The notes under the pieces are model-generated. The model was not told the DNA's origin, did no database searches, and saw only the letters and a list, made by a program, of their open reading frames with translations. DNA of 63,767 nt, filler included. It is 6 parts of 6 records of this genome, joined end to end, with 100 filler letters (N's around TTAATTAATTAA, not from the genome) between each part and the next. Parts side by side here need not be neighbours in the genome. Positions count along the whole stretch, not along the records: positions 22,291 to 31,449 come from SRR31156797_18505; 5 more parts are not named here. One strand, written 5' to 3'. The position numbers were made by a program, and so were the translations under genes. This document shows, one piece after another, positions 22,191 through 58,707 of this stretch (positions are counted from its first letter, which is position 1; each line of letters starts with the position of its first letter).

Positions 22191-22290
22191 NNNNNNNNNN
22201 NNNNNNNNNNNNNNNNNNNNNNNNNNNNNNNNNNTTAATTAATTAANNNNNNNNNNNNNNNNNNNNNNNNNNNNNNNNNNNNNNNNNNNN
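22191..22290. other. Artificial contig spacer
   Basis: N44-TTAATTAATTAA-N44; stop codons in all six frames. Confidence 0.98.
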
Positions 22291-22824
22291 GAAGGATTTA
22301 TTGCTAATATTGCCACCCCTGTCAGCGATCTTTATGCCCTGGAAAGCATCCGGTTGTTAACACAATATCTGCCCGTTGCAATAAAAAACGAGGATGATAT
22401 AGAGGCCCGGGGATATGTAGCCCTGGCAAATACTCTGTCCGGGATGGTGGAGTCCACCTCAAGCTGCACGTCAGAACACTCCCTGGAGCATGCTTTAAGT
22501 GCCTTCCACCACAACCTGCCCCACGGTGCCGGCCTAATTATGCTTTCGCAAGCTTATTTCAGCCATTTTGCTAACAAGGTGCCGGCCCGTTTTGAAAGGA
22601 TGGCCACAGCCATGGGAGCTAAAGATTTTGTACAGGCCCTGATTAAACTTCAGGAGGCATGCGGCGTTAATAATCTTAAAATGTCGGACTATGGCATAAC
22701 AGAAGGGGAATTGGGAGACGTTGCAAAGAACGCCCGTAAAACCATGGGTTTCCTGTATACCCTGGACCCTGTTCCGTTGTCGGATGAGGATGCTGAAGCA
22801 ATTTTACGGGCATCCTTTAAATAA
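22291..22824 (+). CDS. Iron-containing alcohol dehydrogenase, 3' fragment
   Basis: Frame open from the contig edge; EHSLEHALS..LPHGAGL metal-ligand motif. Confidence 0.88.
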   Translation, partial: EGFIANIATPVSDLYALESIRLLTQYLPVAIKNEDDIEARGYVALANTLSGMVESTSSCTSEHSLEHALSAFHHNLPHGAGLIMLSQAYFSHFANKVPARFERMATAMGAKDFVQALIKLQEACGVNNLKMSDYGITEGELGDVAKNARKTMGFLYTLDPVPLSDEDAEAILRASFK

Positions 22825-22848
22825 ACAATATGTAATATAGTAGGTGAT

Positions 22849-23481
22849 TTAAAGCGTATCCGGATAAAGCCGGCCCCTATCAAGGGTAAAAAGGGCATGG
22901 GTCCCGGGCAAAAGCTCCTGTTTTGAATGGGTGACATGAATCACGCAGGCCTTTGTTTTCGCCACCATGACCCGGACCTGTTCCCTGACCCGGTCTTTCA
23001 GGGCGGGGTCAAGACCGGTAAAGGGTTCATCCAGGAGCAAAAGTTCAGGGGAGACGGAAAGGGCTCTGGCAATGGAAATCCGCTGGTTCATGCCCCCGGA
23101 CAATTCCCGGGGATAGTGGGCTTCAAATCCGGCCAGATCCAGATCCTTAAGAAACCTTAAAGCCGTTTGTTTGGCAATGTCTCCTGGCATGCCGGTCGCC
23201 TCCAGGGCCAGGCTGATATTTTTTCGGGCCGTGTACCACCCAAGCAACCTGGGTTCCTGGAACACATATCCCAAGGGGTTTGCATGGATCAGAACCCGGC
23301 CGTTAACAGGCCGGATCAACCCTGCCGCCATCTTCAGTAAAGTGGATTTTCCGGCCCCGCTCGGGCCCTGGATACCCACCACCTGTCCCGGGGCGATCTC
23401 AAGGCTTAAATTTTTAAAAAGAATATGGCGGCCAAAGGCCATGGAGACATTCTCAAATACCACTGCAGATTTTACCGTCAT
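22849..23481 (-). CDS. NitT/TauT-family ABC transporter ATP-binding protein
   Basis: GPSGAGKST, VFQEPRLL, LSGGMNQR, LLDEPF; ATGA overlap with the permease. Confidence 0.9.
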   Translation of the reverse strand: MTVKSAVVFENVSMAFGRHILFKNLSLEIAPGQVVGIQGPSGAGKSTLLKMAAGLIRPVNGRVLIHANPLGYVFQEPRLLGWYTARKNISLALEATGMPGDIAKQTALRFLKDLDLAGFEAHYPRELSGGMNQRISIARALSVSPELLLLDEPFTGLDPALKDRVREQVRVMVAKTKACVIHVTHSKQELLPGTHALFTLDRGRLYPDTL

Positions 23482-24248
23482 GGACACCGGCCTTTCATCC
23501 GCCGTTCCAGGGGGCGGAAAATAAAGAATTCCACGGCACCGGCCACACACATGCTGATCAGGGCCAGGGCGTAAAGAACCGGGGTGTCCAGTTGGGTCCG
23601 TGCCAGGGACATGCAGTGACCAATGCCTTTGTCGGCACCCATGACCTCGGCCAGGACCGACACCCGCACAATATTGCCCCCGGCAATGACCAGGGCCGAA
23701 AAAAATGGACCGGCCGCAGCCATGGCATACACCTTAACCAGCCTCATTTTAAGGCTGAACCGGTAGACCCGGGCCATCTCCAGAAGATGATGGTCCACCC
23801 GGCCCAGGGCATCGGCCAGATTGACAAAGATGATGGGGGCACCCATGCTGGCCGCAATGGAGATGACCATCGCATCCCCCATGCCGAACCAGAGCATAAA
23901 CACAATGACAATCACCACCCCCGGCACAGTGGTCAGTATCCAGCGCACCGGCTCCACCAGGGCTCGGACCTGGGGCACCAACCCGGCCACAAGCCCCAAT
24001 GTTCCCCCGGCAAGTATACCGGCCCCCAGGGCCAGGCCCATGCGCCGGAGGCTCACCCAGAAATGATCGGCCCAGAACCCGACGTCGAACAAAAGCCTTG
24101 CCGCTGCTGTCAAGGTCTCCCGGGGCGCGGGCACCACCAGGCCGGAAAAGGCGCAGGACGCCTGATGCCAGGCCAGGAACAGTCCAAGAATACCCAGCCC
24201 ACCAAATATGTATGTCCCCCTGAACCGGAAACGCAAAAACCATTTCAT
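23478..24248 (-). CDS. NitT/TauT-family ABC permease
   Basis: About six TM segments, SLRR, LLEMARVY loop, AEVMG; ATGA-coupled. Confidence 0.87.
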   Translation of the reverse strand: MKWFLRFRFRGTYIFGGLGILGLFLAWHQASCAFSGLVVPAPRETLTAAARLLFDVGFWADHFWVSLRRMGLALGAGILAGGTLGLVAGLVPQVRALVEPVRWILTTVPGVVIVIVFMLWFGMGDAMVISIAASMGAPIIFVNLADALGRVDHHLLEMARVYRFSLKMRLVKVYAMAAAGPFFSALVIAGGNIVRVSVLAEVMGADKGIGHCMSLARTQLDTPVLYALALISMCVAGAVEFFIFRPLERRMKGRCP

Positions 24249-25183
24249 GGATATACCGTGAACAGTTCCGGCCCAGGCAGGGCTTTCCCCACCGCCCCGG
24301 GATCCCGGTGATAAATTTTTTCCAGGAACAACCGGGCAGCATCAAAGGCGCCCTGTCCCGTGAGAATCGGGGTGCCGGAAAGGGTTACGCCGGGGCTTGC
24401 CAAGGCCGGTGCTGTTTTCTTTGCAATGGCCCGGGTTTGATTAGGATGCGCCTTTATCCAGTCAAGTGCATGCCCGTATCCTTTGATAATGGCCACGATC
24501 TGTCCCGGCTTTTCTACGGCATCACCGAACACGGCAAAGGCGGATACGCACAAAGGTCGGCCGTTGAATCGATTTTCCCAAAGGGTTCGCATATCCAGGT
24601 GTTTGGTCAGTGCCGGCCCGGTCATATTCTTAGAACGGTTCACGGCCAGGGATGCGGCAGGTTCGGCCAGCAACGCATGGTTTGCCCGGCCCATGAGCAG
24701 CAGGTTCATCGCCTCCAGTGCCCCGCCGGTGTGCCGGGTTTCAAGGTGCGGCAACCCTTTTTGCATAACAATGTGAAATAAAATTTCGGGCATTTCCCCG
24801 GGGCCAAAGGGAAACAGCAGTGTGCCCTGTAACGGGCCCTGGGGAACAGGCCGGGTACTGACAATCCACAACGGCGAGGCAAACACCCCGGCCACGGTTG
24901 TTTTAACCCCTTTGTTGAAAAAGGTGGCTGCCGCAGACGTAGTCACCACTGATCCCTGGATTTTACCTGCCGCGATCATGGCCCTTGCCTGGTCCGGGGA
25001 GTGCCAGGTTATAAATTTTACGGATTCCCCGGAAAGTCCCTGGTCCGCCATCACGGCAAAAACCAGGCTTTCGGCCACAGGCGGCCCTGAGATGACAAAG
25101 GACTGGGACTTAAGGGGGGCGGCGCCAAGGAGTTCCGGCAACCATATGATCAGACCGCCCAAAAACGCAACAATTTGTTTCAT
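24245..25183 (-). CDS. ABC substrate-binding protein (SsuA/NMT1-like fold)
   Basis: Signal peptide MKQIVAFLGGLII; WHSPDQARA, ALLAEPAAS, ALDWIKAHP; coupled to the permease. Confidence 0.75.
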   Translation of the reverse strand: MKQIVAFLGGLIIWLPELLGAAPLKSQSFVISGPPVAESLVFAVMADQGLSGESVKFITWHSPDQARAMIAAGKIQGSVVTTSAAATFFNKGVKTTVAGVFASPLWIVSTRPVPQGPLQGTLLFPFGPGEMPEILFHIVMQKGLPHLETRHTGGALEAMNLLLMGRANHALLAEPAASLAVNRSKNMTGPALTKHLDMRTLWENRFNGRPLCVSAFAVFGDAVEKPGQIVAIIKGYGHALDWIKAHPNQTRAIAKKTAPALASPGVTLSGTPILTGQGAFDAARLFLEKIYHRDPGAVGKALPGPELFTVYP

Positions 25184-26208
25184 GTTGTTTTCCTGGCCGT
25201 GACCAGCTCCCATTCATCCACACCAAGATTGACGGTTTGGCTTTCCACCCGGGCAAAGCCGGCCTCCTTTAGATATCGTGCAATCTGCCCCTGTTCAAAG
25301 GAGACATCCTGCCCCTCCAAAGCCAGGGAGAGCCTGGACAGGACAATGCCGGCCGGTCGGGTCCGTTCCCGGGTCAACCCTTCGTGCAGGCAGACCACCA
25401 CGCCTTTATCCGTAATCGCCTGTCTAAGGCGGGTGTAAAATTGTTGGGGATCACGCACATAATAAAGGTTGTGGCTGGCCCAGACAATATCATATCCATG
25501 GCCGAAATCCGTTTCATTATAATCCCCCTGGATAAAAGAAATCCGCTGCTCCAATCCCTCTTTTCGGATCTCTTTTTCAGCCAAGCGAACGATGGCGACC
25601 TGGTCCAGGAGCACACCTTTAAGATTTGGGTGCCGACGAACCATTTCTGCACCCATAAGGCCCGGGCCGCCCCCAAGATCCAGTAGCTTTTTTGCTTTTT
25701 TGAACTCCGGCAGGGCCTGGACCAGGTCCGCGGCCCGGTGGGCCATACCGGACCGCTGGTAGGCCGCCAGATGGGCCACGGCCTTTTCCCATTTCACTTC
25801 AGAGGCCAAGGCCTCACTTTTTTCAACTTCAGGCGAACCGTTTCGGACGATATCAGCGATCCGGTCCAAATGTTTGTGCTGCATACCCTTCATCCGGACG
25901 ACAAAATTGTTCATGTATAAAGGACTTTTAGAATAAAGGTAACGCAGTGCAAAGCCTGTGTTCCGGTATGTTCCGTTTTGTTTTTCCAAAAATCCCAGCG
26001 CAGCCATGCTGTCCAGAAATAGTCCCAGGCATTTGGGGTCAATACGGATATCCATGGCCCGGGCAATTGCCTGCACCGTCATGCCGCCTTCCAGGACATC
26101 GGCAACTTTCAATTCCAGGGCCGCGTCCAAAACCGCCATTTTAACCGGCCCCACCAGAATATCGAACAAGAGGTCCATGGGCACCTCATTATCATTTTGT
26201 TTCATCAT
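25180..26208 (-). CDS. SAM-dependent O-methyltransferase (Methyltransf_2 type with N-terminal dimerisation domain)
   Basis: AALELKVAD, LLDLGGGPG, GVLLD, IQGDY, YDIV; TAATG overlap with the TonB receptor stop. Confidence 0.88.
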   Translation of the reverse strand: MMKQNDNEVPMDLLFDILVGPVKMAVLDAALELKVADVLEGGMTVQAIARAMDIRIDPKCLGLFLDSMAALGFLEKQNGTYRNTGFALRYLYSKSPLYMNNFVVRMKGMQHKHLDRIADIVRNGSPEVEKSEALASEVKWEKAVAHLAAYQRSGMAHRAADLVQALPEFKKAKKLLDLGGGPGLMGAEMVRRHPNLKGVLLDQVAIVRLAEKEIRKEGLEQRISFIQGDYNETDFGHGYDIVWASHNLYYVRDPQQFYTRLRQAITDKGVVVCLHEGLTRERTRPAGIVLSRLSLALEGQDVSFEQGQIARYLKEAGFARVESQTVNLGVDEWELVTARKTT

Positions 26209-28328
26209 TACCACCTCCAGTTAAGGGTAACACCCAGGGTTCTGGGCGCGCCGTCTTCCACCAGGGTTGACCCGGCGGATGCCACCATTTTTTGGGCATA
26301 TTCCTCGTCAAACAAATTTTTGCACCAAACTACAATATCCCAGCGGTCCCATCTGTAACCGGCCTTGAAATTAACCAGGGCATACCCGTCATCCTTTAAC
26401 GTATTAGCGGCATCAAAATATTGCCGTCCGGCCCAGAACACGTTGGCCGTGCCGTACCAGCCGCTTCCATGGATATAGGAGAATCCGGCGTTGGCTGTCA
26501 GATCCGGAGCCCAAGGCATGGTGCAGCCACTGTAATCCTTGGCACTGCCGTTCAGGGTCCCGGTCCAGTCATCAATTTCTGCCTCGACGTATCCCAGGGC
26601 GGCAAAGAGCTCCAGGCCCTGGACGGGCAAAGCCCGCAGTTCCAGTTCCACCCCCTGGGTATGGGCATTGGCTGCATTGGTGATCTTCCAGGCTCCGATG
26701 CCGCCGCCGGCCACCTCTTCCCTGATTTGCTTGTCCGTGATGTCTGTGTAGAACACTGAAACATCGGCTCTCAGACGATTATCAAAAAACGCAGTTTTGA
26801 TCCCGGCTTCATAATTTCTGGTGTATTCGGGGTCATAGGCAAAATTCTGCTGATTTGTGGCGGTGTAGATATCATAGCCGCCGGCCATCCAGCCCGTGGA
26901 AAAAGTCAGGTACCCCATGGTATCGTGGGAAAATTTCCAGGACAAAGAGGCCATGGGCAGCACTTGGGTGTCTGTGATCTCCTGGGCATACAATGTGGTG
27001 CCTGTGCTTTTGGTATAGACCTGGGAACCCGATGCGGATGCATGGTCCAGACGGAGGCCAGCCGTGGCGGTCAGTTTTTCGGTCAGGGCTTTTGAGACCC
27101 GGCCAAACAAGGCCAGGCGGTCCGTGTCCGCTTCGGTGACCCGAATGTTGGCCAAAGATGCCCTGACATGATCAAGGGTCCAGGTATTGTCCAGGTTCTC
27201 TGTGGATGCATAGGCTCCCAAAAGCCAAGAAGAAAAAAATCTTCCCGAAGACGAAGACAGACGCAGCTCCTGGGTCCAGGATTTCCGGTCGATATCAATG
27301 TGAGACACGCCCAGGGGCATGGCGCTCCTGTCCGAATCCATGATATGCTTCCGGTTAAAGTCCTGGTGGGAGGTTACGGAGATAAGATCCATGCCGTAAA
27401 ATGCATACTTGATGTTCAGGGACTGGCCAAAGCTGTCCTGGTCTGCCCCGGAGACCTGGTTGTTCAGCACCGTATAAGTATCCGTAGCAGAGGCACCATC
27501 CAGATACCTGAGATCGTCAAGCCCCGTTTCCCGGCCTGTGCCGTCCAGGGCCAGGGTAATGTCCAAGTCCTGACTGGGCGTGTACCGCAAACTGACCCGC
27601 CCCGTAAAAATGTCGTTGTCAGACGCGGTATCAGAATCAAGGGTGATGTTTTCCATATATCCGTTTGTCACGCTTTTTAACGCGGAAACCGTATAAAACA
27701 ACATATCCTTTTTGAGCGCCCCGCCCACCATGGCTCCGGCTGTAAAAGTATCATAGGACCCTGCTTCCAGCAGTACACGGGCCCGGGACTCATTGCCCTG
27801 GGGCGCTGTCACCATATTGATCACACCTGAAGAACTGTTTTGCCCGTAAAGGGTGGACTGCGGCCCTTTGAGTACCTCAATGCGCTCAATGTCAAAAAGA
27901 AATTGCGACTGCATATAACTTAAGGGATAGGCCACATCATCAATGTAAAACCCCATGGGTGAGAACAAAGAGGTATCAATGGTGGAGATCCCACGGCTGA
28001 CAAAAGCATCGCCCGACGTTGCTGTTTTAAAAAACAGGTTGGGCACAAGCCTTGTCATCTCTTCGGTGGTCCTGATGTTCTGCTCATCTATGATCTGGGC
28101 ATCCACCACCGATATACTGCCGGGAGTGTCTTTGGCCAGAATCTCCTGTTTTTGAGCAGTTACCACGACACTGCCGAGGTCAACCGCCGTTGAGGCCTGT
28201 CCGCCCCACACGGCTTTTGCCGGCATCACCAGGCATGCTGCGACCATTATAGCCATAACCAGGCCGACCAGCTGATGTTCCCCGGATATGCACATCTTTC
28301 TCTCCTTTATAATTTTTCGTTTCAGCAA
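26208..28328 (-). CDS. TonB-dependent outer-membrane receptor (FyuA-like)
   Basis: Signal peptide, TonB box SVVVTAQK, plug IERIEVLKGPQSTLYG..SSGVIN, KNLFD, C-terminal aromatic W; alternative ATG at 28295. Confidence 0.92.
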   Translation of the reverse strand: MLKRKIIKERKMCISGEHQLVGLVMAIMVAACLVMPAKAVWGGQASTAVDLGSVVVTAQKQEILAKDTPGSISVVDAQIIDEQNIRTTEEMTRLVPNLFFKTATSGDAFVSRGISTIDTSLFSPMGFYIDDVAYPLSYMQSQFLFDIERIEVLKGPQSTLYGQNSSSGVINMVTAPQGNESRARVLLEAGSYDTFTAGAMVGGALKKDMLFYTVSALKSVTNGYMENITLDSDTASDNDIFTGRVSLRYTPSQDLDITLALDGTGRETGLDDLRYLDGASATDTYTVLNNQVSGADQDSFGQSLNIKYAFYGMDLISVTSHQDFNRKHIMDSDRSAMPLGVSHIDIDRKSWTQELRLSSSSGRFFSSWLLGAYASTENLDNTWTLDHVRASLANIRVTEADTDRLALFGRVSKALTEKLTATAGLRLDHASASGSQVYTKSTGTTLYAQEITDTQVLPMASLSWKFSHDTMGYLTFSTGWMAGGYDIYTATNQQNFAYDPEYTRNYEAGIKTAFFDNRLRADVSVFYTDITDKQIREEVAGGGIGAWKITNAANAHTQGVELELRALPVQGLELFAALGYVEAEIDDWTGTLNGSAKDYSGCTMPWAPDLTANAGFSYIHGSGWYGTANVFWAGRQYFDAANTLKDDGYALVNFKAGYRWDRWDIVVWCKNLFDEEYAQKMVASAGSTLVEDGAPRTLGVTLNWRW

Positions 28329-28568
28329 GTTATTTCCTCCACGTTTTTTACCCTCAAACAGGCCGGATAGATATAATTTGCCGAACAGATTTGGATATAT
28401 TAAGAGCGGGCTTGGACTGGGTCTATGTTGTGAAACTGCAGAAAATCCCTTGCCTTGTTATATAATTGTTACGCTTATCAAAAAGAAATTGAAAAAAATC
28501 TTAGAATATGATTTATTAATTAGTCATGCATAACTATAAACAAAATATCAATATATTTAGGCGATATC

Positions 28569-29540
28569 TTGAGTGCCAAGGTAACCATAAAAAATTCGGA
28601 AGGCAAATTTATCCGATTTTCCCAAGAGCAGGCGCTTACCAAGCCTGACCGGGAGATCGTGCGGTCTGTACCCACCGGATTGGGCCAGGGCCGGTTCCTG
28701 AACCTGGATTGCCGGTCAGGCATGGATATATGCATGAGTCGCTGCCGGTTTACCAGGGATTACCTGGCCAGGATCGCCTGGCCTGCGCCCAGGCTCACCT
28801 TTGTATTTTGCCTGTCCGGAACCACCCAGACCTTGAACTCCTGCAGCACATCCCCTTTGGGAATAACTGCCGGGCAGGCGCATCTTCACTATTTTGAAGA
28901 CCCGGTCCTGGAGCGGCGAACCGCCGGAGAAAAGGAGATCCGGGCTGTGGTGATCCGGTTTCCTTCTGAAAAAATTGCCGACCTCTTGGGGCCGACCCAA
29001 GAACCCGGCCCCCAAAAGGCGCTTGCAAAGGCCATTCACCAGGGCCATTTTTTTCATTCCCAAACCATGAATTTTACCGTGCAATCCGTGCTTCACCAGA
29101 TGTATGCCTGCCCCCACCAGGGACTGGTCAGGCAGATCTTTCTGGAGAGCAAGGCCATGGAGCTTGTGGCCTATACCCTGGAACAGGCCTTTGACGCCGC
29201 CCTGCCGGGTCCTCCCCTCCGGACTGATGAACGGGACCGGATTGTTGCGGCCCGGGATATCCTGGTCTCCCGGCTGAAATACCCGCCTTCCCTCACCAAC
29301 CTGGCCCGGCAGGTGGACATGAGCCACACCCGCCTGACCCGGGGATTTAAAAAGGTATTTGGATGCACCGTGTTTGAGTATCTTAGAAAGGAGCGTCTGG
29401 CCTATGCCGGAATGCTGCTTTCGGAAAACAGACTGAGTATCACCGATGCTGCCTTTGAAGCCGGGTTCTGCAGCTCCAGCCACTTTGCCAAAGCCTTTCG
29501 CAAACAGTTCGGGATCTCTCCTTCGGAGTTCACATCCTGA
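28569..29540 (+). CDS. AraC-family regulator (PchR/YbtA-like)
   Basis: LESKAMEL, ARDIL..PPSL..LARQV, GFKKVFGCTVF, GFCSSSHFAKAFRKQFG; divergent from the TonB operon. Confidence 0.9.
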   Translation: MSAKVTIKNSEGKFIRFSQEQALTKPDREIVRSVPTGLGQGRFLNLDCRSGMDICMSRCRFTRDYLARIAWPAPRLTFVFCLSGTTQTLNSCSTSPLGITAGQAHLHYFEDPVLERRTAGEKEIRAVVIRFPSEKIADLLGPTQEPGPQKALAKAIHQGHFFHSQTMNFTVQSVLHQMYACPHQGLVRQIFLESKAMELVAYTLEQAFDAALPGPPLRTDERDRIVAARDILVSRLKYPPSLTNLARQVDMSHTRLTRGFKKVFGCTVFEYLRKERLAYAGMLLSENRLSITDAAFEAGFCSSSHFAKAFRKQFGISPSEFTS

Positions 29541-29603
29541 AAATAAGCGCCATGGATACAATGACCATGACAAACAATACGCGTATAAACCAAGGAGATA
29601 CTT

Positions 29604-30620
29604 ATGGAATTACCTGCTATCACAATGACGCCAAAACCGCTTTTCGATTTTCTTTGTGGAACGACAAAATCGTGGATAATGATTACTGCAATAGAACTGA
29701 AGGTATTTAACCTGACGGTTGAAAACAAAACTGCCTCTGAAATTGCGTCATCCCTCAAAACCCATGAGGAAAATACAACCCTTTTTTTAAATGCCCTGTG
29801 CGCAATTCAACTTCTTGAAAAGGAAAACGGAACGTATCGCAATACTGAACTGTCAAACCTCTTCCTTGTTGAAGAAAAAGATTGCTATCTGGGTAAACTT
29901 CTTATGTTTTCCGATCAATGGAATTTTCAAACCAGGGAGCAGATGGCAAATGCCATTAAAAACGGCCCCGGGCCCCAGGTGGACAACGTTGATGATATGG
30001 GAAAAATGTTTGCGTCCCATGTGAACTCCATGAAAAATTATTCCCGGACCGGCATTTCACAATTGATGGCAAAGGAAATCGGCAAATTGCCCGAATTTTC
30101 CGGGATGAAAAAAATGCTCGAACTCGGGGGTGCCCACGGTATGGATTGCATTGCCGTTACCCAAAAAAATAAGTCTTTAAAAGGCGTTGTTTTTGATAAC
30201 CCCGCAGTGATAAAAATTACCAGGAAAATCATCGCCGAATATGGCATGGAAAAAAGGGTTACCGTCATGGAAGGAGATTATGCAACAGACCCCATTGGCA
30301 GCGGCTATGATCTTATTTATGCAAAAGCAACGTTGAATTTTTCCAAAGATAATTTGCAGCCTTTATTCGCAAAGATCTATGATGCCCTGAATCCCGGAGG
30401 CGTTTTCATATCTGTTCATGACGGACTCACAGAAGAACGCACAAAACCTGCTGGTATGGTGATCAGTTGGTTGCCGACCGGACTTTCTTCCCGGGATTTA
30501 TCTTTTGGCCGGGATATTATACCCGATGCCATGCTTCAAGCAGGATTCAAAACCGTAAAAGTTAAACCCCTCCCCTTTTCCATGTGTGAATCCATGGATA
30601 TGTGCATCGGAAGAAAATAG
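29604..30620 (+). CDS. Second SAM-dependent O-methyltransferase, paralogous to 25180-26208
   Basis: TAIELKVF, MLELGGAHG, GVVFD, EGDY, YDLI, HDGLTEERTKP (the paralog has HEGLTRERTRP). Confidence 0.88.
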   Translation: MELPAITMTPKPLFDFLCGTTKSWIMITAIELKVFNLTVENKTASEIASSLKTHEENTTLFLNALCAIQLLEKENGTYRNTELSNLFLVEEKDCYLGKLLMFSDQWNFQTREQMANAIKNGPGPQVDNVDDMGKMFASHVNSMKNYSRTGISQLMAKEIGKLPEFSGMKKMLELGGAHGMDCIAVTQKNKSLKGVVFDNPAVIKITRKIIAEYGMEKRVTVMEGDYATDPIGSGYDLIYAKATLNFSKDNLQPLFAKIYDALNPGGVFISVHDGLTEERTKPAGMVISWLPTGLSSRDLSFGRDIIPDAMLQAGFKTVKVKPLPFSMCESMDMCIGRK

Positions 30621-30752
30621 GGGCAGTGTTTTTATTTTTTCAACTCTCCAAGCCAAGCCCCTCTCCCAAAGGGTATCGGCCAAAACCATAAATCAGCCGT
30701 AATGCCGATGTGAGTCAAGGGGAAAATTTTGCTTGACCCGGGCCCGAATTCT

Positions 30753-30786
30753 TTGTTAACCACTATGCACTATGCAAGTTAACCAA
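30753..30786. promoter_or_regulatory. Candidate BirA operator (autoregulation)
   Basis: TTGTTAACC-N15-AGTTAACCAA resembles the TTGTnAACC-N14/15-GGTTnACAA BirA site and overlaps the birA start. Confidence 0.5.
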
Positions 30787-31449
30787 GTATTGCCGGATAA
30801 AAGGCAAAAGATTCTTAAGATTTTATACCAGTCGGATGGCGTACCTGTGTCCGGGGTCAAAATCAGTGAAGCAGCCGGAATTTCCCGGGTGGCCGTCTGG
30901 AAACACATTAAGGCATTAAAACTGGCCGGTGTGGATATTGAGGCCATGCCAACGGGGTATAAACTTCAGGATACCGATAACCTGCTGTATCCTTTTTGTT
31001 TCCCAGCGCACCTTCAGGACAGAATTTTCCACTTTCCGGAACTTGACTCTACCATGGACCAGGCCCGGAAGATGGTCCGGCAAGATCTGCCCCATGTCAG
31101 CTGCGTGATTGCCGAAGTCCAGACAGCCTCCAGGGGGAGGTTAAACAGGCCGTGGACCTCTGACCGGGGTGGACTCTGGTTTACCCTGATCCTTAAACCC
31201 GATTTGCCGCCTCCCCTGGCATGGACCATAAATTTTGCCGCGTCCGCCTGCATGTCCGAAGTGCTGGCCGATTTATTTGACCTGGATGTCCGCGTTAAAT
31301 GGCCCAATGATCTGCTGCTCAAGGGCCGCAAGCTATCGGGCATGCTGGCGGAAATAGAAACCCGGGCGGATATGGTGAATGTCCTGTTTCTGGGCATTGG
31401 CCTAAATGTGAACAATAAACCGGAATCAGATCAATACCAGGCCATTTCC
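30772..31449 (+). CDS. birA: Bifunctional biotin ligase/repressor BirA, 3' truncated by contig edge
   Basis: HTH SG..IS...GISRVAVWKHI, DSTM, QTASRGR, KWPNDLL, KLSGML. Confidence 0.93.
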
Positions 31450-31549
31450 NNNNNNNNNNNNNNNNNNNNNNNNNNNNNNNNNNNNNNNNNNNNTTAATTA
31501 ATTAANNNNNNNNNNNNNNNNNNNNNNNNNNNNNNNNNNNNNNNNNNNN
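31450..31549. other. Artificial contig spacer
   Basis: N run with TTAATTAATTAA. Confidence 0.98.
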
Positions 31550-34448
31550 TGGCTCTATAAAATACCTCTTCAATAGTTTTTGCTTTTTTCAAATAGGTCA
31601 TCATAATGATCCCATCATTGATAACAACTCCTGCTAGTCCTAAGGTTCCTATCATACTAGGCATAGAGAGGTTTTGTCCCATAATCATATGACCTATAAG
31701 CATCCCTAGAATAGAAAATGGGATCACGGACATTAAGATAAAGGTTTCTCTAAATGAGTTAAAGAGATAGAGCATTGAGAGCATGATAAGGAGTATTGCT
31801 AGTCCTGAAGCGATCATCATATCATGTTTAAGCTCTTTTTTCTTTTCAGCTTCCCCTTTAAAAGTGAGCTTGATTCCATTTTTTTCTATCTCATCTAAAA
31901 GAGGTTTTATTCTCTCAACTGCTTCAGTGGAAGTGATGATTTTTGGATCAACATTTGAGTAGATATAAAAGTTTTTTACCCCTCCATCTTTGGTAACTTG
32001 CTCAAAAGATTTGATCTCTTGGAACTCTACTATTTCATTGAGTCTTACATATTGTCCATTTGATAATGGGATTTGAGAGTTTTTAAAGCTTTCAAAATCA
32101 TCTTTATTGAGAGACTCTACTTTAATATCTAGCATACTTGTTTGATCAAAGGAAACCGCTTTTTTCTTTAAAAGATAGAGATTTGAAAGGTATGTTCCTA
32201 GGTAAGATTCATCGATACCTAGTTGCTCTCCATAGGAGTTTATTTTAAGTTTGATCTCATCTATACCAAAGCTTATAGAGTTGGCAACAGTTTTTACCCC
32301 TTCTAGTTCTCTAAGAGCAGTCATGATCTTATCTGTAGCTTTAATTACTGCTTGGTTATCATTTGAAACAAGACCAATTTTAATATCAGATTTTACAGGA
32401 CCCACCCGTCTTTCTAATACACTGATCTCATTGAGCTTGAATTTTTCTTTATAGTTTTTATTTTCTATAAATTTTTTAAGTTTTTTTGCGATTTGTTGAG
32501 AAGTCTCAGTTCTGGTTCGCCCCTCATCATCATAGTAAAAACTCAAGTATGGCGTAATATATTGATCTAAAATATTTGTAGGTTTTGATTTTGCAAGCTC
32601 CACGGTCATATACATCACATAAGGAAATCTCTCCGTATTACTTCCACTATCCCTTCTATACCCTGCAACAGAATCAATACTTCTAATAGAAAACTCTTTT
32701 TCTTTTTTCATAAGATCAGCTTCAATAGATTGAACTATTTTATAGGCATCTTCAAGTTTTGTATTTGGATTTGCTTTTATAGAGATTTTTACATCTGTTC
32801 CATCAAATTTTGGAAACATTTGAAATTTACTATTTTTGATCATGGTAACAGTAAGGACAGGAACACCTATAATAAAGATCACTAAAAAGAGCTTTTTCCA
32901 TCTCATACAAAAGTGGATGATACTGCTATATATTTTATTTGGTATCTCCCATGAGGTTACTTTTGAACCATTTTTTAAGGTATGACAGGCATGGATTGGT
33001 AAAAATAAAAATGATTCTATAAGTGAAGCCACAACTAAAGCTGATACTGCAATAGGAATCAACTTCATAACTTCTCCCATGGTTCCACTGATCATTAAAA
33101 TTGGGATAAAAGAGAATAGGGTGGTGATACTAGCAATGGTTACAGGCTTTGCCATCTCTTTTGCACCCATAATAGCAGCCTCTTTTGGTGGATATCCCTC
33201 TTCGATATGTTGTTGGATATTTTCACTGACAACGATAGCATCATCTACAACTATACCAATGGCGATAAGTACTCCAACTAAAGAGATCATATTGATACTA
33301 TATCCTGCTAGATAGATATAAAGAGCTCCTATGACAAATGATGTGGGGATCCCAATAGCGATAATAAGTGCCATTCTACTATTAATAAGAAGCGCTACAA
33401 ATATGGTGATCAAAACAATTCCAAGCATAATATTTGAAATAACGATATTTAATCTATCTCGAATCCTTTCACTATTGTCATCACTAATAGAGATATCGAT
33501 ATTTTTTACTTTTTCCTGCATTGAAGCGATCAGTTTTTTTACATCATCACTTACTTGAAGGGCATCTGCTGTATCAGATTGTTTTAAAGCTAAGGAGAGG
33601 GCATTTTTCCCATTAAATGAGTAAAGCGTAGAGGAGTCTTCATATTTTTTTGAGATCTTTGCCACATCACTTAAAGTGATATAGTTATCACCTAGTTTTA
33701 ATTTTGTATTAGCAAACTCTATAGCTGTTTTTTTCCCATTAAAAGTTGAGATATAGTAGTGCTTTTTACTATCTTCTATTTTCCCTACAGGAAAGATATA
33801 AGAAAGGGTTGAAATGGCATTGAATATATTTTGTTTATTCAGTCCATATGCTTCTATCTTTGAATCATCAATTAATACTTCAAAATATTTATCACTCTCT
33901 CCAAAGATACTTACTTCACTTACCCCTTTGACAGTCATAAGTTTGCTTTTAAACTCATCTGCAAAGTTTTTCATTTGATCCACTTCAAGTTCTTTTGAAG
34001 TAAGGGTGATATCTATAAGGTCTCTTGTACGATCTTGTACTACAACTGAAGGATCATCCATATCACTTGGAAGATTACTTTTTGTAAGATCAACTGCATC
34101 TTTTACTTTATTGAGCATGTTATATCGATTGAGCCCTTTTTTAAGCTCCAATACAATTGTAAACTTTCCTGGGCTGATCACTGTAGTAATATCTGTGATA
34201 CCATCGATATTTTTTACTTCATCTTCTATCTCAGTTACAGCCATACGATCTAATATATCTACACTTGCTCCACTATAACTTCCACTGATAGTGACCATAT
34301 CAAGCTCAAATGTAGGGAAGATCTCTTTTGGGGTTTTTGTATATGCCCAGATACCAATAGCAAAGATCAAAATAAAAAGGGTATAGTTCATCCTTGCATT
34401 TTCTACAAAGAAACGTAAAAATTTTTCAAAAGTGCCTTGGGTCTGCAT
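31550..34448 (-). CDS. RND efflux permease (AcrB/AcrD/AcrF family), 3' truncated
   Basis: KEIFP, GIVVDDAIVVSENI, second TM repeat with GVVINDGII. Confidence 0.92.
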
Positions 34449-37029: not shown

Positions 37030-37129
37030 NNNNNNNNNNNNNNNNNNNNNNNNNNNNNNNNNNNNNNNNNNNNTTAATTAATTAANNNNNNNNNNNNNNN
37101 NNNNNNNNNNNNNNNNNNNNNNNNNNNNN
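37030..37129. other. Artificial contig spacer
   Basis: N run with TTAATTAATTAA. Confidence 0.98.
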
Positions 37130-50872: not shown

Positions 50873-50972
50873 NNNNNNNNNNNNNNNNNNNNNNNNNNNN
50901 NNNNNNNNNNNNNNNNTTAATTAATTAANNNNNNNNNNNNNNNNNNNNNNNNNNNNNNNNNNNNNNNNNNNN
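50873..50972. other. Artificial contig spacer
   Basis: N run with TTAATTAATTAA. Confidence 0.98.
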
Positions 50973-58607: not shown

Positions 58608-58707
58608 NNNNNNNNNNNNNNNNNNNNNNNNNNNNNNNNNNNNNNNNNNNNTTAATTAATTAANNNNNNNNNNNNNNNNNNNNNNNNNNNNNNNNNNNNN
58701 NNNNNNN
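58608..58707. other. Artificial contig spacer
   Basis: N run with TTAATTAATTAA. Confidence 0.98.

Follow-up and report, generated by a model that had tools for sequence, protein, structure and literature searches.

Organization of the cassette

The window analyzed here is a stretch of 63,767 nucleotides, spacer letters included, and our subject is a cassette of seven genes within it that encodes a TonB-dependent receptor, a NitT/TauT-type ATP-binding cassette (ABC) importer, an AraC-family regulator and two methyltransferases, named here MT1 and MT2. The contig that carries the cassette (22291-31449; 9,159 bp; G+C 0.52) is separate from its neighbors in the window. The features of the cassette are the following:

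22849..23481, minus strand: ABC ATPase (ABC_tran, E 1.5e-29); its ATG start overlaps the permease stop (ATGA)
23478..24248, minus strand: ABC permease of the NitT/TauT kind, type I importer (BPD_transp_1, E 3.2e-18)
24245..25183, minus strand: periplasmic binding protein of 312 residues with a signal peptide and a NitT/TauT-type predicted fold
25180..26208, minus strand: MT1, class I S-adenosylmethionine (SAM)-dependent methyltransferase, Methyltransf_2 with an N-terminal dimerization domain, predicted cytoplasmic
26208..28295, minus strand: TonB-dependent receptor, plug and barrel; likely start ATG after GGAGAG
28370..28406, no strand assigned: conserved block of 37 nt in the divergent promoter region, GATATAATTTGCCGAACAGATTTGGATATATTAAGAG; candidate promoter or AraC operator
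28569..29540, plus strand: AraC-family regulator with a TTG start (ATG at this place in one orthologue), divergent from the receptor operon
29604..30620, plus strand: MT2, Methyltransf_2 with Dimerisation domain, beginning 63 bp after the AraC gene

A first-pass annotation of this DNA had placed the seven genes on these strands, and its operon order as well as the divergent AraC gene followed by MT2 were borne out. On the minus strand the receptor gene comes first, followed by MT1, the binding protein, the permease and the ATPase. When the junctions were read, a TAATG was found between receptor and MT1, and an ATGA at the three junctions that follow, down to permease/ATPase. These overlaps fix the real starts, which lie downstream of those in the open reading frame (ORF) listing, at 26208 for MT1, 25183 for the binding protein and 23481 for the ATPase; the receptor most likely begins at 28295. 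Neither the order nor the overlaps are due to chance, because the five-gene string with its divergent AraC gene recurs in all five related complete genomes (loci L081, L126, L128, L129 and L130).

The receptor and the importer

The best solved relative of the receptor in a phmmer search of PDB chains was FyuA, the receptor for yersiniabactin and pesticin (4epa; E 1.4e-30, 109.5 bits, residues 48-701), followed by YncD and PqqU in the plug region and then by FetA (3qlb, E 3.4e-15), FptA (1xkw, E 5.1e-14), FpvA and FhuA; BtuB was not among its 29 PDB matches at E<=1e-5. The FyuA/FptA-type kinship that had been proposed for this receptor was thus upheld, as a ranking of PDB matches rather than as a tree, with FyuA as the best full-length match. 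Subfamily models gave 177.6 bits with the siderophore-receptor model TIGR01783 (cut-off 223.5), 90.2 bits with the PqqU model NF041535 (cut-off 1200) and 47 bits, on the plug only, with the BtuB model TIGR01779 (cut-off 599.7). The receptor has no N-terminal signaling (STN) domain and no sigma or anti-sigma genes were found on the contig, so that the FecA-type feature is absent; the lack of a signaling domain fits control by the AraC protein. The motif DLGSVVVTA near the mature N-terminus resembles a TonB box.

The permease had its best NCBIfam matches with SsuC, SaoP, TauC and NtrB, and the ATPase with sulfate, ProV, PhnT and taurine ATPases as well as with sulfonate and nitrate ones. All of these scores lie under the equivalog cut-offs, for which reason the assignment is made at family level only. 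The binding protein had no Pfam or NCBIfam match at threshold, but the profile of its family matched PDB 3hn0 (E 5.2e-20), and an AlphaFold2 model with a predicted local distance difference test (pLDDT) score of 90.9 was compared by Foldseek. The neighbors of this model were, in order, 3hn0 (a Parabacteroides protein without known ligand), PqqT bound to pyrroloquinoline quinone (PQQ), 3un6 (a Staphylococcus aureus ABC-import binding protein crystallized with zinc), MqnD, SsuA and Thi5, with TauA and ThiY lower; E-values for 3hn0, PqqT, SsuA, TauA and ThiY ranged from 1e-16 to 4e-10. A NitT/TauT fold is therefore predicted for the binding protein. Its 74 homologous clusters come mostly from Desulfobacterota, and some of them are labeled NitT/TauT binding proteins by JGI. 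Permease, ATPase and binding-protein fold all agree, at the level of the family, with the NitT/TauT ABC transporter of the first-pass annotation.

The methyltransferases

MT1 matched PF00891 with 43.6 bits and PF08100 with 37.6 bits, both over the cut-offs, and MT2 matched the same families with 53.1 and 51.6 bits; this shared Pfam architecture and an identity of 30% corroborate that MT2 is a paralogue of MT1. SAM motifs were found in MT1 (LDLGGGPG, LLDQ, GDY) and in MT2 (LELGGAHG, VFDN, GDY), the third glycine being substituted in the latter. Motif I presumably binds SAM, and the acidic residues its ribose and adenine. One aligned position is occupied by H in MT1, by T in MT2 and by S in Pseudomonas-type members, and we take it to be the catalytic histidine column of COMT-type O-methyltransferases. 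A further motif, HEGLTxExTxP, is common to members from Desulfobacterota, Azospirillum, Chlorobium, Bacillota and archaea, and it is absent from the branch of Pseudomonas, Lautropia and Billgrantia.

The best solved relatives of MT1 are RedM, two structural-genomics proteins, DsyB, SibL and DnrK-type enzymes. RedM, DsyB, SibL and the DnrK-type relatives methylate, as we understand them, N, S, C or O. Since the target atoms of the relatives vary in this way, "O-methyltransferase" is a family name only, and the O-methylating chemistry that had been ascribed to both enzymes was not supported. Searches of the ESM Atlas with MT1 returned generic "methyltransferase" clusters only. The MT1 translation shows no signal peptide, and the ratio of nonsynonymous to synonymous substitution (dN/dS) of MT1 against its orthologues was 0.12-0.17. 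With its SAM motifs, MT1 looks like a working cytoplasmic enzyme.

Conservation of the cassette

Database searches gave 233 relatives of MT1 (E<=0.001). Those nearest to it are labeled "uncultured Desulfobacter sp." or Desulfobacterales, in agreement with the assignment of the host as a probable sulfate reducer. For 32 of the 74 binding-protein relatives and an MT1 match, the longest contig was identical in size, several of these contigs being just 2.6-7.8 kb long, which indicates that the MT1 and binding-protein genes are adjacent in those lineages. The five orthologous loci in complete genomes, one of them on the Desulfobacter metagenome-assembled genome (MAG) chromosome G001, share 76-89% protein and 82-88% DNA identity with the cassette; the locus L126 is truncated inside the ATPase gene. 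In the order sample of 151 genomes, an MT1 match at E<=1e-70 was present in only 4 genomes, and at all six places concerned a receptor belonged to the same gene string.

The whole order of receptor, methyltransferase, binding protein, permease and ATPase was also found at two of these six places, in the more distant Desulfobacterales G111 and G060, in a Spirochaetia MAG (L002) and, with overlapping annotated genes, on plasmid pRCB133 of Rhodobacter capsulatus SB1003 (RCAP_RS17755-17780). On this plasmid, five of the six window proteins compared match over most of their length with 27-37% identity, and the AraC protein over 87 residues at the helix-turn-helix (HTH) end only, with 43%. Genes at GC-rich loci were called from tblastn frames and Pfam matches. 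The linkage of methyltransferase, receptor and ABC genes, whose loss in other genomes had been named as what would speak against the first-pass annotation, was kept in every close and mid-distance relative examined.

Identities of the two core proteins do not run in parallel. At L001 and L082 a methyltransferase with 50-56% identity accompanies a receptor with 23-30%, and at L002, L135 and L136 the values are 48-51% and 42-44%, respectively. These unequal values suggest that modules have been shuffled.

A family of modules with exchangeable importers

Uptake cassettes of this AraC-controlled, TonB-dependent kind recur, and the one described here is a single copy among them. The description of the locus as a lone island did not survive: 14 MT1 matches at E<=1e-10 were found in the one Desulfobacter genome G001. 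Twelve loci, covering 13 of these matches, were examined. Seven of them (L001, L081, L082, L084, L085, L086 and L087) are linked to a receptor and have an AraC gene nearby, and the remaining five (L083 and L088-L091) are without receptor.

What differs among the receptor-linked modules is the inner-membrane step, which is a NitT/TauT-type ABC importer in L081, a Peripla_BP_2/FecCD ABC importer in L001 and L082 (followed by ZinT in the latter), and in L084, L085 and L087 a permease of the major facilitator superfamily (MFS), with RhtX/FptX and AmpG as best NCBIfam matches, under cut-off. The combination of AraC, receptor, methyltransferase and RhtX/FptX-like MFS permease was also found in Pseudomonas putida, Pseudomonas sp. 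GM50, Lautropia, Billgrantia and two Azospirillum plasmids, including A. brasilense Sp7 p3 (D9621_RS26835-26850); MFS-bearing loci are Pseudomonas L017, Lautropia L014, Billgrantia L079 and Azospirillum L105 and L139. The Billgrantia module adjoins a second receptor, FecCD and FhuF, and the neighbors recorded among paralogous and related modules are ZinT, PepSY_TM, FhuF and a DtxR-like repressor. As far as the gene strings tell, the constant core of the module is AraC, receptor and methyltransferase, and the importer is exchangeable. At least 9 of the best 80 scanned loci have a receptor recognizable with the window receptor as probe, a fraction to be read as a floor and not as a rate, because the scan reaches other Methyltransf_2 branches, archaea and Bacillota without outer membrane.

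Several observations were made along with this survey. Four MT matches lie within about 45 kb of G001 (approximately 105-150 kb; L086, L001 and L087), each in or beside AraC/receptor modules and interspersed with group II intron reverse transcriptase and transposase genes, so that the region looks like a module hotspot. Right after the G001 operon, a second AraC-receptor pair is followed by a 99-residue ORF and PepSY_TM, with no methyltransferase (L081:13350-18674, plus strand). At L081:2248-3750 (plus strand), immediately behind a TonB receptor gene, a single ORF contains both a COX1-like membrane region (residues 4-202) and Peripla_BP_2 (306-477); it may be an odd fusion or a merger made in gene calling. 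In a Bacillota MAG (L003:3965-9983, plus strand), an MT2-like gene (46%) follows two Trep_Strep genes, CbiQ, a double ATPase of the energy-coupling factor (ECF) type and a MatE pump, a string in which transport-linked methylation may have its Gram-positive counterpart. In a Myxococcota MAG (L009:6914-11728), a TetR gene stands between two MT2-like genes, next to an iron-dependent repressor of the DtxR type and an ICMT-family methyltransferase.

Origin of MT2

Orthologues of MT2 with 76-82% identity occur in five genomes of the family. In G267 the order AraC1-MT2-birA is as in the window, and in G247 and G243 MT2 is separated from birA by about 3 kb, which in G247 include a chemoreceptor gene. 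In G228, an AraC gene (27% to AraC1) and a receptor gene (30%) are placed between AraC1 and an MT2 orthologue of 82% identity, all of them co-directional, and DNA alignment revealed that this 3.3-kb AraC2-receptor2 stretch is simply absent from the window. Additional AraC-receptor pairs are found between AraC1 and MT2 in G234. MT2-like genes in G001 (68%) and G222 (67-71%) each stand behind an AraC-receptor pair of their own, and G001 has no MT2 at the AraC1 site. The arrangement in G228 and the MT2-like genes elsewhere indicate that MT2 came from a neighboring module. Judged by these alignments, MT2 is what survives of an adjacent AraC2-receptor2-MT2 module that lost both regulator and receptor in the lineage of the window.

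It follows that MT2 is not the original partner of the AraC gene that it follows, as had been supposed, and the idea of two methyltransferases designed as a pair under one AraC protein was rejected on the history of MT2. MT2 is intact and, by its substitution pattern, under purifying selection: dN/dS was 0.10-0.24, with 0.18-0.24 among lineages without receptor 2 and 0.10 between those having it. No terminator-like site was found on the plus strand between the AraC gene and MT2, which makes read-through from the AraC gene into MT2 likely. Modules with two methyltransferases do occur, since in G060 an MT2-like gene (40%; L137:7287-8225, plus strand) stands behind the ATPase gene of a receptor-methyltransferase-binding protein-permease-ATPase operon, and a two-enzyme variant is therefore possible.

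Regulation of the modules

HTH_18/HTH_AraC covers residues 245-321 of the AraC protein, whose N-terminal 240 residues had no family match in Pfam or NCBIfam; the best 25 of its 30 NCBIfam matches all fall within residues 189-322, mostly at the HTH end. Its best full-length relatives among plasmid proteins are unnamed AraC genes on Leptolyngbya boryana plasmids (30% identity, 99% coverage). A relative on plasmid1 of Leptolyngbya sp. NIES-3755 (28.9% over 89% of the query) adjoins an annotated ferrichrome receptor, and another heads an Azospirillum AraC-MFS-receptor-methyltransferase string. The designation "PchR/YbtA-like" that had been given to this regulator is an interpretation.

The 37-nt block at 28370-28406 is the best-conserved intergenic stretch, being nearly invariant in the window and the five orthologous loci, and is a candidate promoter or operator of the receptor operon. 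In simple scans of the contig for promoters and terminators, counts equaled those of shuffled sequence. Fur boxes were scored against a 19-nt Escherichia coli consensus, and Desulfobacterota may use another motif. By this score, a 17/19 match lies upstream of the AraC gene at both Azospirillum loci. The best match within the locus (about 16-21 kb) was that of the module promoter at L002 and L036 (14/19) and at L011 (13/19); at L017 and L079 the promoter match (13/19) shares the top score with one and five further sites, respectively, and at L014 there is only a 12/19 tie. As AT-rich intergenic DNA in GC-rich genomes favors Fur matches, only the 17/19 cases are strong.

No Fur-like box was found at the R. 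capsulatus locus, where the module is preceded by a cobalamin riboswitch (71.6 bits; gathering score 31.5). Among the six module loci scanned, a riboswitch stands in this module-heading position only in the R. capsulatus copy. The regulatory inputs of the relatives, as predicted from these elements, are metal-related. A second cobalamin riboswitch (L105:5300-5524, minus strand; 111.7 bits) lies beside the Azospirillum argentinense module and reads away from it, facing a gene annotated as dihydroneopterin aldolase, with methylmalonyl-CoA mutase genes near.

Comparison with known systems

Like the pyochelin and yersiniabactin systems (PchR-FptA-FptX and YbtA-FyuA-YbtPQ), the cassette has an AraC-type regulator beside a receptor without signaling domain, its receptor is closest to FyuA with FetA and FptA also matched, and the ligand must reach the cytoplasm. 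It differs from them in that no biosynthetic genes are attached, a methyltransferase lies inside the transport operon, a binding-protein-dependent BPD_transp_1 importer of the NitT/TauT type stands in place of the FptX MFS or YbtPQ ABC step, and its promoter has no convincing Fur box by the E. coli consensus, which may not be that of the host. A likeness to FptX itself is confined to the RhtX/FptX-like MFS permeases, under cut-off, of paralogous or distant modules.

Among known systems, the one whose logic comes nearest to a modifying enzyme tied to transport is FiuA-FiuB-FiuC of P. aeruginosa. There, the gene of a group-transfer enzyme lies with those for uptake, and this cytoplasmic enzyme, FiuC, is reported to acetylate ferrichrome after import as part of iron release (PMC7699141). 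That enzyme is, in contrast, an acetyltransferase acting on a hydroxamate ligand, and its proteins are unrelated and under other control. SAM-dependent methylation of a foreign siderophore is known from Spm of S. aureus, which according to the abstract of its description (PMC10592502) methylates pyochelin, abolishing siderophore activity and iron binding and protecting the cell from toxicity. That abstract does not describe Spm as part of an uptake operon, and its Gram-positive host has no TonB receptor.

In PqqU-PqqT, too, a TonB receptor is joined to a binding protein of NitT/TauT fold, there with an anionic aromatic ligand. Among the structural neighbors of the cassette binding protein PqqT ranks second, at fold level only (16% identity), and PqqU matches part of the receptor only, with the score far under cut-off given above. 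A term search of the accessible text of the PqqU paper (PMC12124388) gave no mention of a methyltransferase. From B12 uptake with BtuB the cassette differs by having neither a cobalamin riboswitch nor a BtuB-type receptor. The closest counterpart in gene order is the uncharacterized pRCB133 copy, with AraC, receptor, methyltransferase, binding protein, permease and ATPase in the same order; there, the AraC gene is co-directional with the operon, the cobalamin riboswitch lies ahead, and the module is plasmid-borne in an alphaproteobacterium.

In the literature searched for modules that pair a receptor with a methyltransferase, no account of one was found. The papers on IurV (PMC7600106) and mupirochelin (PMC10080011) were set aside, as they deal with other methyltransferases. 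The cassette is a well-conserved variant of the AraC-controlled metallophore utilization systems, and apparently an undescribed one.

Proposed function and alternatives

We consider it slightly more probable than an even chance would give that the cassette lets the cell take up a foreign metal chelate on induction and methylate the ligand once it is in the cytoplasm. The gene content, the translational coupling, the conservation of the module, the kinship of its parts and the metal-related regulatory elements of relatives are shown by the data; we infer the nature of the cargo as a metal chelate, its foreign origin, the action of MT1 on it and what methylation would do. The chelate would cross the outer membrane through the FyuA-like receptor, be captured by the NitT/TauT-type periplasmic binding protein and be carried into the cytoplasm by the type I ABC importer, where the AraC activator would sense it and switch on the divergent operon. 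MT1, translationally coupled to the receptor and importer genes, would then methylate the chelate with SAM. A methylated donor group (carboxylate, phenolate, thiolate or ring nitrogen) would bind metal more weakly, and in this way either the metal would be freed or the emptied ligand would be kept from stripping the metals of the cell and from re-inducing the AraC protein. MT2 would be a functional leftover of the adjacent like module, probably read through from the AraC gene.

That the methyltransferase stays fixed between receptor and importer while the type of importer changes points to a ligand-processing step. Such a step would help most with metals that reduction does not release, and the ZinT link, the cobalt/B12 riboswitch and the expansion of modules in a sulfide-producing organism would fit this. 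To our knowledge, removal of the metal from tight imported chelates is known for few siderophores, by reduction, ester hydrolysis or acetylation, and for non-reducible metals it is essentially an open matter.

Several findings weigh against this proposal. Importers of the NitT/TauT kind, binding-protein-dependent and of type I, are not usual for siderophores; their fold is known for small anionic or aromatic ligands, and the nearest folds with known ligand take PQQ, a hydroxymethylpyrimidine (HMP) precursor and sulfonates, not metal chelates. The receptor also matches PqqU and YncD, on the plug only. No convincing Fur box was found in the window promoter, where the best match (13/19 to the E. 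coli consensus) is equaled by other sites of the contig and falls within sequence that the orthologues lack, and no known RNA or riboswitch was found on the cassette contig (Rfam, E<=1), apart from one chance match to a long noncoding RNA. Archaeal methyltransferases of the MT2 branch have no transporter neighbors at L004, L005 and L010, from which it follows that the family is not specific to uptake. Finally, all five related genomes carry one conserved single-module C-A-T-TE nonribosomal peptide synthetase (NRPS), and G243 has more NRPS genes.

The fold of the binding protein favors the main alternative, the import of a metal-free cofactor, precursor or aromatic acid (a PQQ-like quinone, another quinone or a benzimidazole-type compound) that the methyltransferase would finish or convert. 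The fold neighbors 3hn0, PQQ-bound PqqT (template-modeling score 0.69-0.71), MqnD, Thi5/ThiY, SsuA and TauA, together with the second-rank receptor matches YncD and PqqU, speak for such a cargo, and the riboswitch ahead of the R. capsulatus copy is of the cobalamin kind, a control typical of cofactor supply genes. We nevertheless regard import of a cofactor-like aromatic as unlikely, because PqqU and YncD match the plug only (90 bits against 1200 for PqqU) and FyuA the full length, because the paralogous modules have siderophore-type importers (FecCD, RhtX/FptX-like) and lie near ZinT, FhuF and PepSY_TM, because strong Fur-like boxes precede the Azospirillum copies, and because cofactor salvage would hardly call for as many as 14 methyltransferase matches in one genome.

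Self-production of some ligand is made possible by the NRPS genes of the relatives, and MT1 might then be a tailoring or last-step enzyme beside re-uptake genes, with the other genes of the pathway elsewhere. Natural methyl esters of thiazoline metallophores, which occur according to sections of one report (PMC12210259), would agree with this, as would the neighbors of two modules: a ThiF-rhodanese protein and an aminotransferase fusion beside that of Pseudomonas sp. GM50 (L011), and a ThiF protein beside that of a Desulfobacterium (L008). The conserved NRPS is, however, megabases away from the module, with no receptor or salicylate genes near it; in G247 it stands beside a glycosyltransferase, a chemoreceptor gene and hydrogenase genes. 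No biosynthetic genes were found in the 20-kb stretches around the locus in the four annotated genomes (G001, G228, G247 and G267), where the neighbors are birA-bioY-ECF, chemoreceptors, IS66 parts, DUF4198 and more AraC-receptor pairs, and IucA/IucC was found in none of the five related genomes. The "orphan" status claimed for the cassette is thus supported for its neighborhood and, given the conserved NRPS elsewhere, unproven genome-wide. The operon has no exporter, MT1 is translationally coupled to import genes, and at least seven receptor-linked modules occur in one genome. A self-made ligand is therefore less likely than the foreign one proposed here, and a shade less probable again than an imported cofactor.

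The third alternative is a tetrapyrrole cargo (heme, porphyrin or corrinoid), whose ring would be modified as BchU modifies bacteriochlorophyllide. TIGR02716 (BchU/CrtF) is indeed the best NCBIfam match of MT2 and the second best of MT1, but its scores of 37-44 bits fall far short of the cut-off (276). The alignment of the TonB-hemin subfamily model spans receptor residues 51-683, with 76 bits against 317 and a lower score than the siderophore subfamily, and the heme receptor PhuR matches the plug only. The best solved relatives of the methyltransferase act on varied small molecules. Iron or B12 control in relatives would both fit a tetrapyrrole, and we hold such a cargo to be decidedly improbable all the same. 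Least credible of all is that the methyltransferase is a mere safeguard that disarms toxic compounds entering through the receptor (sideromycin-like or redox-active chelators) and has no nutritional role, since, in spite of the protection from pyochelin that methylation by Spm gives S. aureus (PMC10592502), a dedicated high-affinity importer and an uptake-inducing activator would be self-defeating for a purely harmful cargo and the methyltransferase is coupled to import genes at all loci examined.

The uptake and methylation of a foreign chelate, as proposed here, might extend beyond this cassette. Tentatively, and with more doubt than confidence, ligand methylation could be a general unrecognized step of TonB-dependent metallophore use, one that breaks very tight chelates chemically and so frees non-reducible metals (Ni, Co and Zn, also Fe); sulfide-rich anaerobes such as Desulfobacter would then have a battery of modules, one per foreign chelator, and the module would have been rewired to iron in Azospirillum and to B12/cobalt in Rhodobacter. 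The question is directly testable, because the module is present in the tractable R. capsulatus SB1003, A. brasilense Sp7 and Pseudomonas putida. The gene set is widespread and may reveal a new way to handle imported chelators. In sulfate reducers the matter touches on the acquisition of trace metals from sulfidic water, and it draws attention to a class of enzymes that could inactivate siderophores or siderophore-linked compounds.

Contig borders and neighboring contigs

The six contigs of the window are joined by five spacers, each consisting of 44 N, TTAATTAATTAA and 44 N. Two contigs have a G+C content of 0.52, one of 0.42 and three of 0.30-0.35, and the record may thus combine different organisms. 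The spacers and the two genes at the ends of the cassette contig, both outside the cassette, are as follows:

22191-22290, 31450-31549, 37030-37129, 50873-50972 and 58608-58707: spacers
22291..22824, plus strand: C-terminal fragment of an iron-containing alcohol dehydrogenase (Fe-ADH), truncated at the contig start
30772..31449, plus strand: birA (biotin ligase/repressor), C-terminus lost at the contig end

The Fe-ADH fragment covers positions 36-193 of 194 of the ADH_Fe_C profile only, its frame is open to the first base after the spacer, and this flank was not found beside the orthologous loci of the relatives. birA (TIGR00121, 125 bits, and HTH_11), whose translation enters the N spacer, is the conserved right-hand neighbor, birA-bioY-ECF genes following MT2 in G228, G247 and G267. 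Both genes are contig-end stumps, so the statement that the cassette is bounded by Fe-ADH and birA had to be given up. That it contains no NRPS or other biosynthetic gene is correct for the contig; on a separate contig with truncated ends, both statements cover just 9 kb of the assembly.

The PhoU-side genes and a low-GC resistance-nodulation-division (RND) pump lie on other contigs and are uninformative for the cassette locus. The RND permease, of the AcrB type (31550-34448, minus strand), is on a contig of 33% G+C and has its C-terminus truncated by a spacer. A B12-binding radical SAM protein is encoded on the neighboring contig (18257-19621, plus strand), with weak matches, all far under cut-off, to P-methyltransferases, BzaD and HpnJ.

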